From contig WJJZ01000010.1 of assembly GCA_014729395.1 (NCBI GenBank), positions 92,544 through 156,543 of the forward strand: 64,000 bases of DNA. The letters are read 5' to 3'. The position numbers and the translations under genes are program-made. Below the pieces are notes generated by a model. That model saw only the letters and a program-made list of their open reading frames with translations. It was not told the DNA's origin and did no database searches. Shown here piece after piece: positions 9,464 to 32,675 of the stretch. The DNA is from Candidatus Magasanikiibacteriota bacterium. GTDB lineage: Bacteria; Patescibacteriota; Patescibacteriia; Magasanikbacterales; UBA922. Within the stretch, counting starts at the first letter, position 1, and each line of letters opens with the position of its first letter.

Positions 9464-11515
9464 TTATTTATTGTTTTTTGAAGACATTTTTTTTAACTCT
9501 GATATTTCGTCTCGAAGTATTGCTGCAAATTCAAATTCCAAATTCTTAGCTGCTTCTTTCATCTTATGTTCCTTGTCTTTAATTATTTCCGACACCGGTC
9601 GATCATCGCCGGTCAAATCAAGTTGTAACAATTTTTTGTTTTTGCTTGTTTTGCCTGATAATTTAAGTTTTTTTGATGATATACCAAACTCCTCCAAAAT
9701 GTTCCTAATATTTTTTTCTATTGTTTTTGGCGTAATGCCATGTTTTTTGTTAAATGCCAATTGTTTTTTTCTTCTTCTGTTTGTCTCTTTGATAGCCCTA
9801 TCCACGGAACCGGTAATATTATCAGCGTACAAAACCACTTGTCCGTTTACATTTCTGGCCGCCCTGCCAATGGTTTGAACAAGACTGGTTTCACTGCGCA
9901 AAAAACCTTCTTTATCAGCATCCAATATCGCTACCAGAGAAACCTCCGGAATATCCAAACCTTCTCTCAATAAATTAACTCCCACAATTACATCAATTTT
10001 ACCCGCGCGAAGATCATTTATAGTCTGAATGCGTTCCAATGTTTTTATATCACTATGCAAGTACTTGACCTTAATTTTCATTTCTTTCAAATAGTCACTT
10101 AAATCCTCAGCCATTTTTTTGGTTAATGTTGTTACCAAAATCCTTTCCTTCTGATTTACTCGTTCATCAATTCGCTCCATTAAATCCTCAACCTGTGATT
10201 TATTCTTGCCCTTCTTTTCCGTAACCGGACGAATAATAACTTCCGGATCCACCAAACCGGTTGGGCGAACGATTTGTTCTGCCACCTGATCGCTATTTTT
10301 TATCTCATATTCAGATGGGGTGGCCGAAACATAGATCGTCTGCTCTACTCTACTCTCAAATTCATCAAATTTTAAGGGTCGATTATCTCGTGCGCTTGGT
10401 AATCTGAAGCCGTGTTCTACAAGTGTATCCTTTCTGGCTTTATCTCCATTATACATGCCTCTTATCTGCGGCACCGTAACATGTGACTCATCAATAACTG
10501 TCAAAAAAGCCTGTTCTTTTTCACTTATTCCGTGAACAAAGTAATCCAATAATGTAAACGGTGGCTCACCGGGTTCCCTGCCGTCAAAATGACGAGAGTA
10601 ATTTTCAATGCCGTTACAATAGCCGATATTATTAATCATTTCCAAATCATATCGAACTCGTCTTTTTAGTCTCTCATATTCCAGAACTTTTCCTTTTTTC
10701 TTGAACAGCTCCAATTGTTTTTTTAATTCCGCTTTTATGCTTTCAAAAGCTCTTTTTCTCAATTCACCTCGCACAACATAGTGTTTAGCCGGAAAAATCC
10801 AAATATCACTTTGCTGACGAATAACTTTTCTGGTGATGGGGTCTATTTGTTCAATCAGATCAATCTTTTTACTAATTTCAAATCTGTAAATTTTGTCTTC
10901 GTTTACGGGCATAATTTCAAAAACTTGACCACGCATTCTAAAAGTACCGCGCCTCAAGTCAGCGCTGGTTCTCTCAAACTGCATATCAATTAACTTTTCC
11001 AGCATACCCCGTCTATCCAAACTTGCTCCCTTTTCCAAATGTAGTACAAACTTTTCATATTCACCCGGAGACCCCAAGCCATAGATGGCTGACACCGAAG
11101 CGACTATTATTACATCACGCCGAGTAAGTAGAGCTTGTGTGCAAGCATGACGAAGCCTATCAATTTCTTCATTTATTTGAGCCTCTTTTTCAATATAGGT
11201 ATCTGAATTTGGTATATATGCTTCCGGTTGGTAATAATCATAATAAGAAACAAAATACTCAACAGCGTTATCGGGAAAAAATTCTCTGAATTCATTACAA
11301 AGTTGGGCGGCTAAAGTTTTATTGTGTGCGATTACCAGTGTCGGTTTCTGAATAGCTTCAATTACATTGGCAATAGTAAAAGTCTTTCCGGATCCCGTTA
11401 CCCCAAGTAAAGTTTGCTTATCATATTTTTTTTGTAAACCGGAAACAAGCGACTTGATTGCTTTGGGTTGGTCACCGGCCGGTTTGTATTTTGATTGTAG
11501 TTTAAATTTGTTCAT
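9464..11515 (-). CDS. uvrB: Excinuclease ABC subunit B (UvrB)
   Basis: Helicase motifs (GVTGSGKTFT and DESH), a UvrB beta-hairpin region and a C-terminal UVR domain (EFEFAAILRDEISELKK). Confidence 0.95.
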   Translation of the reverse strand: MNKFKLQSKYKPAGDQPKAIKSLVSGLQKKYDKQTLLGVTGSGKTFTIANVIEAIQKPTLVIAHNKTLAAQLCNEFREFFPDNAVEYFVSYYDYYQPEAYIPNSDTYIEKEAQINEEIDRLRHACTQALLTRRDVIIVASVSAIYGLGSPGEYEKFVLHLEKGASLDRRGMLEKLIDMQFERTSADLRRGTFRMRGQVFEIMPVNEDKIYRFEISKKIDLIEQIDPITRKVIRQQSDIWIFPAKHYVVRGELRKRAFESIKAELKKQLELFKKKGKVLEYERLKRRVRYDLEMINNIGYCNGIENYSRHFDGREPGEPPFTLLDYFVHGISEKEQAFLTVIDESHVTVPQIRGMYNGDKARKDTLVEHGFRLPSARDNRPLKFDEFESRVEQTIYVSATPSEYEIKNSDQVAEQIVRPTGLVDPEVIIRPVTEKKGKNKSQVEDLMERIDERVNQKERILVTTLTKKMAEDLSDYLKEMKIKVKYLHSDIKTLERIQTINDLRAGKIDVIVGVNLLREGLDIPEVSLVAILDADKEGFLRSETSLVQTIGRAARNVNGQVVLYADNITGSVDRAIKETNRRRKKQLAFNKKHGITPKTIEKNIRNILEEFGISSKKLKLSGKTSKNKKLLQLDLTGDDRPVSEIIKDKEHKMKEAAKNLEFEFAAILRDEISELKKMSSKNNK

Positions 11516-11623
11516 AGTTGTAGAGTTGTAAGTTTTTTTTGTTTAAAAAATTACTTACAACTATTTTCCCTAAATTTAGCCAAATCTAACAATCCAATTC
11601 TACCATGCTCTTGACAATGAAGC

Positions 11624-11652
11624 AAATTATATATAAACTTAATTTATCCCAA
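11624..11652 (+). promoter_or_regulatory. Sigma70-like promoter (TTGACA with an AT-rich -10) at the start of the ORF-free segment
   Basis: TTGACA at 11624-11629, with TATATA/TATAAA 15-17 nt downstream. Confidence 0.35.
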
Positions 11653-12770
11653 CAAGGATGTTGGTGCGCTTTGCAAGTCCTCAATGAGGAGGAGCAAACA
11701 GAACTGAACTCTCATGTTCTCCAAACCAGATACATCAAAAAAGTGGTCCTCTTACGAGGACGCGCAACACAGAATCAGTGTTTGGAACATAAGAGGGATA
11801 AGTCTGGCACTAACATCCTTCTTTTTTTTGTCAGTGCACAGTTCTCAGTTCACAGCCATCACTTGACGACTTTTTTTATACTTGATAAGATTAATCTTGC
11901 CGCTAGAGAAAAAGGCATGAGTGGCAATCGACAATTGTAGACGTTTAATTCGTCACAAAAATCGATTCAAACTTCTGGAAAGTTCGAGACTTTTAGTCAC
12001 GGATACTCTGGAAAAAGCTCATGAAAAAAACTCCAGTGGCACACGGGATGAGACATGTTTTTCACAATATCCAGGCGGTTGATCTGCCGGTGAGTGATAA
12101 ACGAACTTTAAAACGTTTTGATGTGTAGAAATAATTGGAGTCTAAGGTAAACCAACTAAAGACTCGATGTGTAGACACGCTAAAAATCGTGGAAACAATC
12201 GGTGCTGAGCATCGACTGATAACAAACGGTGGGTGCGAACGAGATCTTTGATCAAGTTCAAGCAAGTGTCTGTACAACAATTATGAAACGTGTCAGCTGG
12301 TGAACAGCTCACATGAGGTGAAACATACTCACGCGAAAAGTTCACACACTTTCAAGCGGAAAGTCAGTAGATTGGTAAAACCTTAGTGTTGCACCAAAAT
12401 CAACTTTCACAAATGAAAGAGCTGTCTGACAAGCACATCCAGAAGATATTACTTTAGAGAAACTTTCTTCCAAGATGAAAATCTTGGACTTTGCCTGAAT
12501 GGGTAAGTTGTAGAAAGTAAATCGAGAGTGAAAATCCGAAGGATTTGTAAAAAGATAGCGTGATCTGATGACCATCTCTAATCATCTGAGTAACAACGAA
12601 GATGAATCGTGGAAACACGATAAAGATAGGTCAAAAGTTTGCTTTCATAGAGAGTTGAATTCTGCTGAACAGGAAGCAAAAAGTAAACCGGGTAAAACTG
12701 GTTGAAAAAGAAAGTGTAAAGCAAAAAACGTTTAAGAGGTTTGTGCATGTCCATCCCTCTTTTTTTTATT
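11650..12770 (+). ncRNA. Candidate large non-coding RNA or decayed island: about 1.1 kb with no ORF over 111 aa on either strand, elevated GC, a purine-rich plus strand and internal repeats (aatcgtggaaaca twice)
   Basis: The six-frame track has only short ORFs here. Composition differs markedly from the flanking AT-rich genes. An upstream promoter is present, and a weak hairpin plus T tract lies near 12740-12770. The family is not recognised. Confidence 0.3.
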
Positions 12771-13229
12771 CAAAAAATATAATATAATGAACTCTAGACG
12801 CTGTGTCGGCCGGTCATCAATAATCGGTCGCAAGGAACCAACTTGTTCTTACCTGCCATGAAACCCGTATAACACGAGGTTTCTTTTGTAAAGAAATCTA
12901 CACTTACTCGAAGTCCGGTGGTGGGAAAAGAAACAAGAAGGAGGCCTAAACGCAGCGTCCTTTTTTAATTCCAATTAACAAGAGGATGGTTTAAAGTATT
13001 AGCTAAAGTAGAATGTTGCCGCTGCAAAAACAAGTAGAACAAGCACTAATACCACAAGCGCCCTATCCTTGAACCTCTTTCTGAATACCAATTCAAAAGG
13101 TATGTAAAGTATTAGATAAAAGAGAACAATTCCAAACAGTAGACATATGATATAGATTGAGGTTGTTTTTTAATAAGAATTACACACACCATTTTATAAT
13201 TTTTTTATACAAATTTTAACTTACCTCTA

Positions 13230-13257
13230 TTGACATTTTGTTTATTCTTAGTATAAT
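13230..13257 (+). promoter_or_regulatory. Consensus sigma70 promoter (TTGACA-16-TATAAT) driving a short transcript
   Basis: TTGACA at 13230-13235 and TATAAT at 13252-13257. Confidence 0.6.
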
Positions 13258-13263
13258 TAATTT

Positions 13264-13336
13264 AATGATAAGTTAAGTTGCGAGAATCCAATATCCGCTC
13301 CGAATTTCAGAACTCCCTTTTGGGGGGTTCTTTTTT
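13264..13336 (+). ncRNA. Candidate roughly 70-nt sRNA whose 5' 15 nt are perfectly complementary to the anticodon arm of the adjacent tRNA-like gene
   Basis: Bounded by the consensus promoter and an intrinsic terminator (GAACTCCC/GGGGGGTTC stem plus TTTTTT at 13310-13336). Positions 13264-13278 (AATGATAAGTTAAGT) are the reverse complement of 13440-13454. Beyond that, the transcript is a diverged inverted copy of the tRNA-like 5' half. Confidence 0.35.
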
Positions 13337-13415
13337 AATAAAAATTTATCTATATTTTATAAAAAATTTGTTTTTCATTAATCATCTACTTTATATAATT
13401 AATTCGGCGGTACGG

Positions 13416-13489
13416 GGGCGGAGAGCGGATGGCTCCGCGACTTAACTTATCATTTAAGTTTCTGGGGTTCGATTCCCCCTCCGTCCACC
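13416..13489 (+). tRNA. tRNA-like gene with a canonical acceptor stem, D arm and T arm but an aberrant anticodon arm (6-bp stem, 8-nt loop); CCA not fully encoded
   Basis: Acceptor GGGCGGA/TCCGTCC includes a G3:U70 pair. D-stem is GCGG/CCGC with GG in the loop. T arm is GGGG-TTCGATT-CCCC. Discriminator A is followed by CC. Anticodon arm is ACTTAA-CTTATCAT-TTAAGT. An upstream TATAAT sits at 13394-13399. Confidence 0.45.
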
Positions 13490-13498
13490 GTCTAATTC

Positions 13499-14851
13499 TT
13501 AAACCTCAACTTCCTCCTCGTACTCCGGCACATAGCTCTCTACCCCAAGAGCTTCTTTTATTTTATGAGCTAATTCAGTTACACCGTTCGGTTCACCATG
13601 AACACAATATACTTTTTTAGGTGCTTTGGTACCACTGTTTACCCAATTTACCAACTTTGTTTGATCTCCATGGGCTGATAAAGCTCCGATCGCTTTGATT
13701 TCACATTTTACACCCACATCTTGGCCAAAAATTTTTACTTTTTCGGCTCCTTCATACAGCCTTCTTCCCAAAGTACCATTCGCCTGATAACCGACAATAA
13801 TCAGAGTGGAATTGGAATCAGACAAATATCTGATTGCGTGATGCAAAATCCTACCACCATTCATCATTCCGGATCCCGCTATAACCACCTTTGGTCCTTT
13901 TTTTCTGTTAATTTTTTTTGACTCTTCTTTGGTATAAGTCATTTTTAAATTTGGAAATTCAAAAAAATCATCACCGGCTTTGTGCAAACACATAGCTTTT
14001 TGGTCATAGTATGATGGAAACTTTTTGTATACTTTTGTAGCGTCTATCGCCAATGGACTATCCAAATATATGGGAACATTTGGTAAAAGATTATCATGTT
14101 CAATCAATAAATTAAGCTCATAAAGCAGTTCTTGAGTTCTTTCAAGTGAAAAAGCCGGAATCATAATGGTACCACCCTTTTGAATACCCCTTTTCAAGAG
14201 ACCATGTATTATGCTCCGTCTGGTATCAATATCTTCATGCAATCTATCACCATATGTAGATTCTACAAGTAAAACATCCAATTCGTCTAAATTTTGCGTA
14301 TCCCTCAAAATCGGTACATTTTCATTTCCTATGTCACCGGAAAAGCCGATCTTTTTACCGCTTACCTCCACCTCTATAAAAGCGGCACCAAATATATGTC
14401 CCGCGTCTTTCCAAACAGCAAAAATATTATCTTCAATTTTAATCTTTTTATTATATTTTACACCTTTGCAATGCGATATGGCTTCTGCCACATCATTTTC
14501 ATCAAATAAAATTGGAGTATTATATTTTCTATGATTGTATTTCATAATACCATAAGCATCCTCCCATATCAGCTTGGCAAATTCACAGGTTGCCTCAGTC
14601 ATGTATATAGCTCCTGTAAAACCCTCTTTTATTAGTTTTGGTATCCTACCTATATGATCTAGATGAGCATGGGTTACCAACACAAAATCAATATCTTTTG
14701 GGTCAAATGGAAAATCATCATGATTTCGTCCTTCGTTAAAATTTGATCCTTGAAACATCCCACAATCAACCAAAAACCGATTATTACTGGTTTTTACCAA
14801 ATGACAAGAACCGGTTACTTCTCGATCTGCTCCACAAAATTTTATTTGCAT
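13499..14851 (-). CDS. MBL-fold beta-CASP ribonuclease (RNase J / CPSF-like RNA-processing exonuclease)
   Basis: Metallo-beta-lactamase HxHxDH motif (THAHLDHIG), followed by beta-CASP and RNA-specificity regions. 450 aa. Confidence 0.85.
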   Translation of the reverse strand: MQIKFCGADREVTGSCHLVKTSNNRFLVDCGMFQGSNFNEGRNHDDFPFDPKDIDFVLVTHAHLDHIGRIPKLIKEGFTGAIYMTEATCEFAKLIWEDAYGIMKYNHRKYNTPILFDENDVAEAISHCKGVKYNKKIKIEDNIFAVWKDAGHIFGAAFIEVEVSGKKIGFSGDIGNENVPILRDTQNLDELDVLLVESTYGDRLHEDIDTRRSIIHGLLKRGIQKGGTIMIPAFSLERTQELLYELNLLIEHDNLLPNVPIYLDSPLAIDATKVYKKFPSYYDQKAMCLHKAGDDFFEFPNLKMTYTKEESKKINRKKGPKVVIAGSGMMNGGRILHHAIRYLSDSNSTLIIVGYQANGTLGRRLYEGAEKVKIFGQDVGVKCEIKAIGALSAHGDQTKLVNWVNSGTKAPKKVYCVHGEPNGVTELAHKIKEALGVESYVPEYEEEVEV

Positions 14852-16639: not shown

Positions 16640-16735
16640 GTTCTCAGTTCACAGTTCTCAGTCATCAGACATTGTTGACACTTAGATATATAGCATTATA
16701 CTTTTACTGACTGTGAACTGCGGACTGTGAACTGC
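16640..16735. repeat. Imperfect inverted repeat built from CAGTTCACAG units, enclosing a promoter-like TTGACA...TATACT upstream of murJ; a partial homologous copy lies at 11841-11875
   Basis: Left arm is cagttcacagttctcagtcatcag. Right arm is ctgactgtgaactgcggactgtgaactg. TTGACA sits at 16683-16688. The segment 11841-11875 aligns at roughly 75% identity and includes its own TTGAC. Confidence 0.5.
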
Positions 16736-22541: not shown

Positions 22542-22580
22542 ATAATTTTTATTAAGTCTACCTTTTGTGTAAAGGCGTTT

Positions 22581-22652
22581 GTCATTCCCGCGAAGGCGGG
22601 AATCCAGGAGAACGGACTTCGCAGACTGGATCCCCGCCTTCGCGGGAATGAC
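22581..22652. repeat. GC-rich nested-palindrome repeat, copy 1 (GTCATTCCCGCGAAGGCGGGAATCCAG ... CTGGATCCCCGCCTTCGCGGGAATGAC)
   Basis: 27-bp arms with an 18-nt loop, and each arm is itself palindromic. Lies between recJ and the DUF523 gene. The minus-strand ORF 22058-22654 that covers it is spurious. Confidence 0.85.
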
Positions 22653-26679: not shown

Positions 26680-28692
<2,013 letters not shown>

Positions 28693-28754
28693 TTATTTAT
28701 TAAGTAATAAATTATGTGAATTAATTTTATAAATATGTTTAATAAAAGACCTTT

Positions 28755-28826
28755 GTCATTCCCGCGAAGGCGGGAATCCAGGAAAACGGACTTTGCATAC
28801 TGGATTCCCGCCTTCGCGGGAATGAC
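28755..28826. repeat. GC-rich nested-palindrome repeat, copy 3, upstream of dnaK
   Basis: Same 27-bp arms with an 18-nt loop. Confidence 0.85.
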
Positions 28827-28944
28827 ACAATTTAAGTAAATTTGATACACAAAAGTTGTCAATTATCATCTCCCGAGTCTTATCTTTGTTTTATCACCAA
28901 AGAATTACCTGATTTTTTAATGTCAAAAATGTATTTTATAGGTT

Positions 28945-29400
28945 CTATCTCCTCACCAAATATCTCAAACTTACAAATAATATAATCAAACCTATCCATT
29001 TCAGTACCATCTTTAAAACTTCATTACGAATTAAAGTTTTCTTAGAACTACTATAAACAACGTCAAACTTTTGAGCACTCTGATATTTAAAAACCGTATT
29101 TTCCTGACCTTCTTTGTAGTCACTTATATTGTATTCAACCTTGATATTTTTACCCGAAGCTGAGGCCTTTTTTATCAATTAACTATTTATGGATACTACA
29201 TTATTCTCATCAACGGATGTCTCAACTAATACCAAAATCTTATTTTTATTTATTTGGAGTCCTTTATAAAAATAATAGTAATAACCAACTAAAAAGAGAA
29301 TAACACTAAAAACCAACAAACCAAAAGCTAACCAATGATACCTAATAGTAAAATTGCCTTTTTCTCAAATATCAATTCCTCTATTTATCAAACCACCATC
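28945..29400 (-). pseudogene. Decayed gene remnant for a small membrane protein, with a frameshift and an in-frame stop
   Basis: The minus-strand frames encode MDGGLINRGIDI*, then ...RYHWLAFGLLVFSVILFLVGYYYY...SINS*, then LIKKASASGKNIKVEY...LVRR. Adjacent fragments lie in the same orientation and are interrupted by stops. Confidence 0.3.
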
Positions 29401-29486
29401 CATACTTATTAATTAACCCCTCATTCCTTGACTCGTCGGTTGTATAGACCAACAAGTCAAGTCAGAGCAATTAATCACCCAAATTA

Positions 29487-31283: not shown

Positions 31284-32006
31284 TTAATTATTAAAAATAC
31301 TTTGAATAAAATTTAATAAATTATAATTTCTATGATAATTCATTCGAATTGGTCCCAATACTGTCAAAATATCGTTATTTCCCAAACCGGCAATCATTGA
31401 GCTTGATACTGATCCAAAAGGACTATCACTTCCGATTAAAATTTTTACTTTTTCATTTTTAGATATACTGTATAAATCCTCAACCTTATCCTCTACTTCG
31501 TCAAAAATACTGGAAAAACTTAAAACTCTTTTATACTCACGAAATTCCGGCTGACTAAATAAATTACTCAAACCGGTATAATAAATCGAAGTTCCATCAA
31601 AAGCGATAATAACAGCACAATTACATAAATTAGCTAGATATTTGGCAATTTTCTTCTTATTTTCTTTTGTAGAATTTTTTTTATCAATCAGTTTCTTAAT
31701 TTGCGTACAGACTACATCATCCGGTTTATTTTTTTCCAAAATATTTTCAATATAATACTTATAGCCCTTTTCAGTGGGAATGCGACCGGCTGATGTATGA
31801 GGTTGAGATAAAAAACCCTCTTTTTCCATATCTCGCATCTCATTCCTCAAAGTGGCACCGCTCACACCCAAACCGCCTTTTTCAGCTAAAAATTTCGAAC
31901 CAACGGGATCTGTGTTTAATACATAGTTATCCACAATCAATTTTAGTATTTTTTCTCTACGTTTTTTCATATTATCACTCTTAACCTTCGAGTGATAATA
32001 TACCAT
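31284..32006 (-). CDS. hrcA: Heat-inducible transcription repressor HrcA (short form); true start probably the internal Met at 31970
   Basis: N-terminal wHTH (ILKLIVDNYVLNTDPVGSKFL...SGATLRNEMRDMEKEGFLSQPHTSAGRIPTEKGYKYYI) and a C-terminal ...GPIRMNYHRNY. The promoter (-35 at 32020-32025, -10 at 31997-32002) lies downstream of the first ATG. Confidence 0.8.
   Translation of the reverse strand: MVYYHSKVKSDNMKKRREKILKLIVDNYVLNTDPVGSKFLAEKGGLGVSGATLRNEMRDMEKEGFLSQPHTSAGRIPTEKGYKYYIENILEKNKPDDVVCTQIKKLIDKKNSTKENKKKIAKYLANLCNCAVIIAFDGTSIYYTGLSNLFSQPEFREYKRVLSFSSIFDEVEDKVEDLYSISKNEKVKILIGSDSPFGSVSSSMIAGLGNNDILTVLGPIRMNYHRNYNLLNFIQSIFNN
31972..31998. promoter_or_regulatory. CIRCE-like inverted repeat TTATCACTC-N9-GAGTGATAA (consensus TTAGCACTC-N9-GAGTGCTAA) overlapping the hrcA -10 and transcription start
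   Basis: 16 of 18 positions match the CIRCE consensus, with symmetric substitutions and the exact 9-nt spacer. It sits immediately after the TTGACA-17-TATATT promoter on the minus strand. Confidence 0.55.
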
Positions 32007-32081
32007 GATGAAAAAACCATGTCAACATAATTTCTAAAACCTTACCGTTTCGGGCAAGGTTTTGAAATATTTCTGTTCTAA

Positions 32082-32675
32082 TTATTTTTCAGCAGTTCTT
32101 TTATACTCCTGAATATTGGCTATTTCACTCAATAAAACGTTTTCAACATAAATACCGCGTGCATAAAAAATTCTTTCCAATTCATTTTTTAATTCCGTCT
32201 CTACCGTGTCTCTCATCGGACCAATTATTTCATCTTGGTTAAAACGACTCATCACCATCCTGATACGGCTCCTCACGGTAGGTCTGATAATCTTTGCTAC
32301 AAAATCTTCACCAATAGTCTGCCAAATGGATGGAATCTGATGAACATCCAATCGCAATAAAATAGTACCTTCCACACCTATTCTATTGCCATCTTGGGTT
32401 ACAGCCGCAATCGGTATATCCCCCATTGCCTTTTCATTCTCCATGGTAAAATTTCTGGAAATACTATATTCCAAAGTCTGAGTATTAAACAACTTCGCCT
32501 TTTGCCAAAAAGGAATCTTGAAATGCAAACCCGGGGTCAATACTTTTTTTAATACACCTCTGCCCAAATCGTATACACAAGCAACGTAACCGGGAGGGAC
32601 ATAAATAAAAAAACCCTTCAAGACATCCTCCATCACGAAAGAATACATCAGTTTGTCCAAGGATTCTGAACTCAT
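32082..32675 (-). CDS. SPFH/Band 7 (prohibitin/HflKC-like) domain protein
   Basis: Band-7 core (VPPGYVACVYDLGRGV...VLTPGLHFKIPFWQKAKLFNTQ). 197 aa. Confidence 0.7.
   Translation of the reverse strand: MSSESLDKLMYSFVMEDVLKGFFIYVPPGYVACVYDLGRGVLKKVLTPGLHFKIPFWQKAKLFNTQTLEYSISRNFTMENEKAMGDIPIAAVTQDGNRIGVEGTILLRLDVHQIPSIWQTIGEDFVAKIIRPTVRSRIRMVMSRFNQDEIIGPMRDTVETELKNELERIFYARGIYVENVLLSEIANIQEYKRTAEK

Follow-up and report, generated by a model that had tools for sequence, protein, structure and literature searches.

To our knowledge, the bacterial noncoding RNAs (ncRNAs) longer than about 500 nt can be counted on one hand once ribosomal RNA (rRNA), RNase P RNA, transfer-messenger RNA (tmRNA) and introns are set aside. 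Each of these giant RNAs has proved structurally surprising, and a Nature paper of 2025 is said to have presented giant bacterial ncRNA as RNA-only multimeric assemblies. GOLLD and ROOL often adjoin tRNAs and/or sit in prophages. Patescibacteria have reduced genomes with little room for junk, and a look through the literature turned up no description of a large RNA in this group. Here we present a gene-free gap at positions 11516-13498 of a 64,000-nt stretch of DNA from a Candidatus Magasanikiibacteriota bacterium (contig WJJZ01000010.1, positions 92,544 to 156,543 of the forward strand; hereafter the window). Comparing it with a second genome, we think it likely, with a probability of roughly 0.6, that the gap holds a lineage-specific cluster of stand-alone structured ncRNA genes that are read from the plus strand, opposite to the flanking genes. 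The main product would be a ~870-nt RNA, unit B, with the smaller units A and C to either side, and promoter-like sites suggest that the three are probably transcribed separately from sigma-70-type promoters of their own.

Unit B resembles GOLLD, ROOL and OLE in its size class (0.6-0.9 kb), its stand-alone gene and its very high predicted structure, in its enrichment for GC and purines over the surrounding intergenic DNA, and in its patchy, lineage-restricted distribution. A tRNA-type gene (unit E, described below) also lies nearby in the window, although the second genome is without one. Unit B differs from these classes in that it matches none of their covariance models even at E<=10, and in its host, a member of the Patescibacteria that carries no phage genes near the locus. 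Moreover, the known classes have long conserved cores, whereas the interior of B is unconserved between its two copies, and the helix that closes the whole giant domain of B runs directly up to the terminal U-run. Our best guess is that B may be a stable structural RNA of the GOLLD/OLE/ROOL kind that acts as a scaffold or protein-binding particle, with any specific role held far less firmly than the existence of the cluster. We do not think that unit B is a cis-regulator because nothing lies downstream of it on its strand.

The gap is bounded by uvrB (9464..11515, minus strand) and by the gene for a beta-CASP/RMMBL hydrolase (13499..14851, minus strand; hereafter the MBL gene), and the local order reads UvrA (-), a 168-aa open reading frame (ORF), DUF218 (-), UvrB (-), the gap, the hydrolase (-), a 222-aa ORF, CorA and MurJ. 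No other intergenic region of the window, about 91% of which is coding, is as large: the gap measures 1983 nt and the runner-up 806 nt. An initial annotation had marked positions 11560-13230 as a single 1.7-kb, ORF-free, purine-rich and GC-elevated element in densely coding surroundings, offering a large structured ncRNA, a decayed foreign island or a degraded gene as explanations. Much of that description holds: the longest ORF in the gap is at most 111 aa on both strands, each of the six frames contains 29-47 stops of all three kinds (one per 15-20 codons), and purines make up 54.7% of the plus strand over the marked segment and 57.8% of unit B, where adenine alone accounts for 35.7%. The internal repeat that had been seen is an exact 13-mer, AATCGTGGAAACA, with exactly two copies at 12185 and 12605, where by our own estimate chance would supply about 0.02 such pairs. 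Elevated GC is true of the segment (0.378) relative to other intergenic DNA (0.285) but not relative to the window (0.362) or to coding DNA (0.367); units A, B and C stand at 0.435, 0.391 and 0.454. The picture of one element has to be given up. Promoter-like sites, U-runs and folding split the plus strand into unit A, unit B, unit C and an unstructured AT-rich spacer, followed by units D and E, which lie to the right of the marked segment and carry the feature past its proposed end at 13230 to about 13490.

Unit B and its counterpart in a sister genome

Unit B is predicted to span positions 11898..12767 on the plus strand, behind a predicted promoter at 11863..11891 (plus strand; TTGACG-17-TAAGAT with an extended -10 TG). 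It would consist of a small 5' domain (11898-12041), closed by the helix UGCCGCU/AGUGGCA, and an elongated, multi-branched giant domain of ~710 nt (713 nt, 12045-12757), closed by GGGAUG-A-GACAUG/CAUGUC-CAUCCC with U8 directly after it; both closing helices have a pair probability of ~1.0. The predicted fold would be unusually stable. The minimum free energy (MFE) of the 877-nt stretch is -275 kcal/mol as against -201 to -203 for dinucleotide shuffles, an excess of 74 kcal/mol that corresponds to z scores of -8.4 (20 shuffles) and -10.9 (8 shuffles). On the antisense strand the excess is -39 kcal/mol (z -3.9), and for 22 control windows of equal length from other parts of the window z lies between +1.5 and -2.8. 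The ensemble is also unusually well defined, with 90% of positions well defined and a mean positional entropy of 0.28 bits, compared with 64% and 0.75 bits for the antisense strand and 39-67% and 0.79-1.20 bits for 14 controls. In a scan with 150-nt windows, all of those from 11701 to 12750 are negative (background -0.5+-1.4). The giant domain is organized around a spine of nested pairs, 108 deep, that joins the 5' half to the 3' half; 34 of the pairs span >400 nt.

A counterpart exists in contig CAYSPW010000001.1 (L001), whose UvrB and MBL proteins are 79% and 71% identical to those of the window and which is the sister of the window in a UvrB neighbour-joining tree. There, the same MBL-uvrB junction contains a 1.33-kb ORF-poor stretch that holds B and C, and only ~255 nt of it, comprising the last part of B and unit C with its promoter, can be aligned with the window by blastn or nhmmer. 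The L001 copy of B measures 969 nt with a GC content of 0.51 (locus 0.44). On the sense strand, its fold is 72 kcal/mol more stable than those of shuffles (z -6.4 to -8.4), as against 30 kcal/mol on the antisense strand (z -3.85), with 16 controls between +4.5 and -3.7, and 91% of its positions are well defined. Per nucleotide, the excess stability of the two copies is -0.084 (window) and -0.075 kcal/mol/nt (L001). An extreme, strand-specific fold, a well-defined ensemble and a counterpart in a sister genome thus favour the large structured ncRNA among the explanations first offered for the segment.

Four blocks are common to the two copies of B. One is the extended -10 together with the start, TTGCCGCTA (TGATAAGATTAATCTTGCCGCTA versus TGATATTATTCCTTTTGCCGCTA), and the promoter and start of unit B align locally with those of L001 (TTTACA-17-TATTAT, also TGATA...) at a z score of 3.6. 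Another is CUCCAnUGGC, a third is the core of the closing helix, GGAUGAG...CAUCC, whose extensions are lineage-specific yet complementary and which has a pair probability of ~1.0 in both genomes, and the last is the 3' end, AAGAGG...CAUCCyUCU8. From these two sequences we infer that selection may act on the global fold and the terminal modules of B rather than on a conserved tertiary core.

Immediately upstream of the TTGACG -35 of unit B lies a 24-nt run of 3.4 CAGTTCA heptads (11832-11855, plus strand). The same heptad flanks the promoter of murJ, in direct orientation upstream (16641-16661) and inverted downstream (16708-16734), and eight matches within one mismatch are found where 1.9 are expected. 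The initial annotation had recognized a copy of a murJ-upstream promoter cassette here, and at both sites CAGTTCA heptads indeed stand ahead of a TTGAC -35. We consider the heptad a candidate for a shared regulator-binding site that would link the unit B RNA to the cell-wall gene murJ.

Units A and C and the shared ends

Unit A is a predicted structured RNA of ~185 nt (11646..11830, plus strand), supported by its fold and an end-pairing inverted repeat. The sigma-70-type promoter predicted for it (11611..11639, plus strand) reads TTGACA-17-TAAACT, with 10/12 consensus matches; its -35 is the TTGACA that had been noticed before, which occupies 11611-11616 and not 11624. A 14-bp helix, AAGGAUGUUGGUGC/GCACUAACAUCCUU, pairs the two ends and is followed by U8, and the MFE of -66.2 kcal/mol corresponds to z scores of -5.3 on the plus strand and -4.2 on the minus strand. 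The last 65 nt of unit A align to the 3' end of L001-B with a score of 43 (null 15.9+-3.0), and its closing strands, AAGGAUG...CAUCCUUCU8, form the same module that closes unit B. Judged by this alignment, the 3' end of unit B has a short paralogue in unit A, which would represent a miniature of the closing and terminator module of B. No counterpart of A is present at the L001 locus, and folding the three A/B 3' modules together yielded no informative consensus.

Unit C is a predicted structured RNA of ~172 nt (12793..12966, plus strand), supported by its fold, by conservation in L001 and by compensatory pairs. Ahead of it, overlapping TATAAT hexamers can be read as a -10 (12778..12788, plus strand), where a promoter scan listed no full promoter; the equivalent site in L001 has TTGACG-17-TATCAT. 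In its fold, an end-closing helix P1 and a hairpin P2 are accompanied by a long P3 that bears a conserved purine tract, AAGAAGGAGGCC, and a U6 run follows. Its fold z score is -4.15 on the plus strand and -1.64 on the minus strand, and the L001 copy reaches -5.65. The consensus of the two copies has 32 pairs, 11 of which show compensatory double changes, including 4/10 of the P1 pairs, and unit C would be a separately conserved partner gene of ~170 nt. A covariance model built from both copies (R1) scores 200.7 bits on each of its two source sequences and found no further copy of unit C in 34 sources (the window and 33 loci), and a metagenome scan with a 23-base unit-C pattern returned six false positives, all in high-GC coding DNA. 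Pairing of the purine tract of unit C with the pyrimidine tails at the 3' ends of A and B was also considered; it gave a p value of 0.002 in L001 and 0.36-0.74 in the window and was rejected as a conserved interaction.

The three RNAs would share a common way of ending. Units A, B and C finish in runs of U8, U8 and U6, and in both genomes the 3' strand of a helix lies immediately before the run and pairs with a strand at the 5' end of the molecule or domain, such that the helix would close the whole RNA in A and C and the giant domain in B. The spans closed in this manner are ~140 nt in A, ~150 nt in C and ~700-860 nt in B, and a local alternative hairpin with an 11-16-nt loop can also be read from the sequences of A and B. 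In this arrangement helices would enclose both ends of the RNA, and the closing helix probably also acts as the termination hairpin and would shield the two ends.

Smaller RNAs offer partial parallels. Units A and C recall 6S RNA in their length of ~170-185 nt, their paired ends, their stand-alone genes and, in rod-like MFE folds, an extended irregular hairpin with large internal loops before a terminal stem-loop. They depart from it in that there is no 6S match in Rfam, an extra 5' side hairpin, P2, produces a three-way junction, and a central bubble is hinted at only in the L001 fold. In YrlA, a bacterial Y-RNA-like RNA, and in eukaryotic Pol III transcripts the 5' and 3' ends pair into a basal helix, and the molecule finishes with a U-run. 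Units A-C are likewise end-paired and U-tailed, but no sequence or model match to these RNAs was found, no Ro/Rsr gene is present in the neighbourhood, and B is several times larger. It is possible, though somewhat doubtful, that B, A and C belong to an undescribed class of Patescibacteria RNAs, end-closed, U-tailed and ~0.18-0.97 kb long, in which the global fold and the terminal module are selected over the interior sequence, and in which B is a giant ncRNA that works as a scaffold, forms an RNA-only assembly or serves as a decoy for a protein that binds or cleaves RNA. Should the candidate RNAs be real, the catalogue of giant RNAs would extend to the candidate phyla radiation with an RNA of ~0.9 kb, accompanied by a miniature paralogue and a conserved partner RNA, whose structural signal is very strong while its interior sequence is hardly conserved. 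Units A and C, at 170-185 nt, would then be compact targets for structure determination.

Competing explanations for the gap

Searches of known RNA families agree with the earlier impression that the segment belongs to none. Rfam 15 at gathering thresholds gave 0 matches over the whole window, and in E-value mode (E<=10; applied to the region, to units A, B and C singly and to the L001 counterpart) it returned only noise apart from the tRNA model on unit E. The GOLLD, ROOL, OLE, HEARO and raiA models had no match at this threshold on the region, on unit B alone or on the L001 counterpart, nor did the 6S RNA models on unit A or unit C searched alone. RNase P RNA, tmRNA, signal recognition particle (SRP) RNA and rRNA gave no Rfam match, and ARAGORN reported no tmRNA. 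For group I and II introns the only match was one to group-II-D1D4-3 at chance level (14.2 bits, E 3-7.6), which came without a domain V match, an ORF or an interrupted gene.

The degraded gene among the early suggestions would be the wreck of a protein-coding sequence, for example of a SulP transporter: a relative with 77% UvrB identity and the same MurJ-CorA-MBL-uvrB synteny (P0003) carries a 558-aa SulP/STAS gene in this very slot, on the strand that corresponds to the plus strand of the window. We find this scarcely credible for the gap itself. Pfam searches of six frames of the region, with Sulfate_transp and STAS included, yielded 0 matches at E<=10, and the concatenated six-frame translation had 0 matches at E<=0.1 among 5.8 billion proteins; the continuous frameshifted homologue that the initial annotation had proposed to look for as the mark of a pseudogene was not recovered. 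When all inter-stop peptides were compared by tblastn with 31 Patescibacteria loci, the matches were confined to the C/terminator segment of L001, which is conserved as DNA, and involved several frames simultaneously, a pattern that indicates nucleotide rather than protein conservation, and no frame-consistent similarity to relatives was seen. Stops at the density given above, an anomalous fold and conserved RNA-like boundaries would all be unexpected in such a wreck, and a pseudogene, of SulP type or other, is rejected within the sensitivity of the Pfam, protein and tblastn searches. An alternative genetic code or a recoded ORF is likewise rejected, since all three stops are frequent in each of the six frames and no reassignment opens an ORF.

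A further rival is a non-functional relic, the decaying remains of a foreign or mobile insertion (foldback or miniature inverted-repeat transposable element-like, or a prophage end) in a variable slot beside a tRNA-like gene, whose fold would go back to ancient inverted repeats. The MBL-uvrB junction does carry different cargo across relatives, ranging from 78-90 nt in two of them at ~77% UvrB identity (L096 and L002) to the SulP/STAS gene just described and a 575-nt gene-free gap in the P0009 genome, and a tRNA-like gene with an inverted partial copy adjoins the cluster in the window. The nested spine of unit B would suit an inverted repeat, unit A is a truncated copy of the end of B as expected of miniature derivatives with conserved termini, and the complementary termini GGAUG...CAUCC around a variable interior, with a short derivative beside a long element, recall elements of this type. 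Yet no integrase, transposase or phage genes occur within +-5 kb of the gap, whose Pfam-assigned neighbours are UvrA, DUF218, UvrB, MBL, CorA and MurJ, and neither the rest of the 64-kb window nor the fetched loci contained dispersed copies of the A/B termini, a single exact match (L095) from a viral pattern scan being due to chance. A phage origin was rejected as well: a blastn search of 50,697 phage records returned only a 71-nt AT-rich chance match, and four pattern scans of viral contigs gave nothing or chance matches. The strand asymmetry of the fold excess in both genomes would not be expected of a neutrally decaying DNA palindrome, and the interior is saturated with changes, yet the excess per nucleotide is alike in the two copies. 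Streamlined genomes are also unlikely, we would argue, to retain 1-2 kb of junk for so long, and the decayed foreign island of the initial annotation fits poorly with retention in two deeply diverged genomes. We keep the relic as a rival but think it unlikely.

Several observations do weigh against a cluster of functional RNA genes. The island was seen only in the window and L001, a single two-member clade, and no third example appeared in ten gene-context look-ups of UvrB or MBL relatives (with DNA for 7/10). The variable cargo of the junction means that the RNAs are dispensable for the wider group. The interiors of B (~700 and ~850 nt) cannot be aligned between the two genomes, so covariation for B is limited to the closing helices, and its rod-like nested spine could partly stem from an old inverted duplication. 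Finally, a terminator scan (3-8-nt loops) did not list the ends of A, B and C as canonical terminators because their local hairpins have 11-16-nt loops or are absent.

The remaining alternative is that the gap acts as DNA or in cis, as an origin, a recombination site, a guide-RNA array (CRISPR or TIGR), the template of a diversity-generating retroelement (DGR), or an untranslated region or antisense transcript of uvrB or the MBL gene. The size of the intergenic region, its numerous hairpins and promoter-like sites, its position beside an SOS-type gene and one perfect DnaA box in the L001 counterpart could be taken this way, but we judge it very improbable. The predicted transcripts run away from uvrB, stop before the stop codon of the MBL gene and overlap no gene, and the strand asymmetry of the fold points to RNA. 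The DnaA box TTATCCACA does not occur within one mismatch anywhere in 11516-13498, and a replication origin is rejected on this ground. The sole tandem or interspaced repeat is the 24-nt heptad run, which is also all that TRF finds; no repeat family with at least three copies is present in units A-C and no effector gene is adjacent, and CRISPR and TIGR arrays were rejected accordingly. One three-copy repeat family was found, in the spacer and the D/E region. A DGR template was rejected: nothing in the window suggests a pair of template and variable repeats, the island matches the rest of the window only in AT-rich stretches and the heptad, and no reverse transcriptase is encoded nearby or among the six Pfam-assigned neighbours.

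Units D and E, the uvrB side and other observations

To the right of the cluster, unit D is a predicted short RNA (13264..13337, plus strand) with a perfect consensus promoter (13230-13257; TTGACA-16-TATAAT, 12/12) and, at 13309-13331, a strong terminator. The D and anticodon arms of unit E recur in the first ~45 nt of unit D as a diverged copy in inverted orientation (inverted repeat of 22 nt, 91%), and the predicted D:E duplex has an energy of -50.9 kcal/mol as against a null of -30.7+-4.5. Going by this complementarity, unit D may regulate the tRNA-like RNA as an antisense transcript or may be what remains of an inverted duplication. Unit E itself (13416..13489, plus strand) lies ~450 nt downstream of unit C and has its own promoter (TTTTCA-16-TATAAT). 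The 64 kb contain no other tRNA-type gene, and unit E was not found in L001 or in any other fetched locus. It scores 29.9 bits with the Rfam tRNA model in E-value mode, was missed by ARAGORN at default settings and is reported at a lowered threshold as tRNA-?(Ile|Asp)(tatc). The gene has an 8-nt anticodon loop, CUUAUCAU, with the 4-base anticodon UAUC, a G3.U70 pair, A73 and an encoded CC. The G3.U70 pair is an identity element for alanine.

The spacer between units C and D (12969..13258, no strand assigned) has a GC content of 0.29 and fold z scores of +0.75 and +0.07 in the 150-nt scan. It holds a second TTGCCGCT at 13016 as well as the -35 and -10 of unit D. That second copy raised the question of another B-like gene, which was rejected: similarity to the 5' region of B is not significant (z 0.5-1.2) and a fold signal is absent.

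On the other side, a conserved block in the divergent promoter region of uvrB and unit A (11586..11612, no strand assigned; L001 5940-5966), flagged by a tblastn match, covers 26 nt just upstream of uvrB, 21/26 of which are identical between the two genomes (ACCATGCTCTTGACAATGAAGCAAAT in the window, ATCATGCTATTAACAAGGAAGCAAAC in L001). It includes the first two bases (11611-11612) of the TTGACA -35 of unit A. On the minus strand, that of uvrB, it reads as an extended -10-like sequence, TGGTAGAAT in the window and TGATATATT in L001, and it is probably the promoter or an operator of uvrB.

In two further relatives (L091 and L092), also at ~77% UvrB identity, the MBL-uvrB slot is occupied by a hypothetical gene with about five tandem 68-nt repeats (L091 7760-8000). 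Its product measures 285 aa or 217 aa depending on the assembly, a difference that would reflect variation in repeat number. Perfect copies of the 9-mer TTATCCACA number seven in the 64 kb (756, 18457, 20272, 31927, 37514, 46731 and 58555), unclustered and none of them in the RNA island, and within one mismatch the window contains 35 where 22+-4 are expected.

Other parts of the window also contain strong hairpins. The second-largest intergenic region (28681-29486; 806 nt, GC 0.30) has one at ~29427-29462 in the fold of the minus strand, and another strong hairpin pair lies at 31960-32070 (within 31951-32100). The strongest local hairpin of the window, with a z score of -14.7, is a GC-rich, near-perfect inverted repeat of >20 bp at 22570-22650 (GTCATTCCCGCGAAGGCGGG...), in a 167-nt gap that separates two plus-strand genes.

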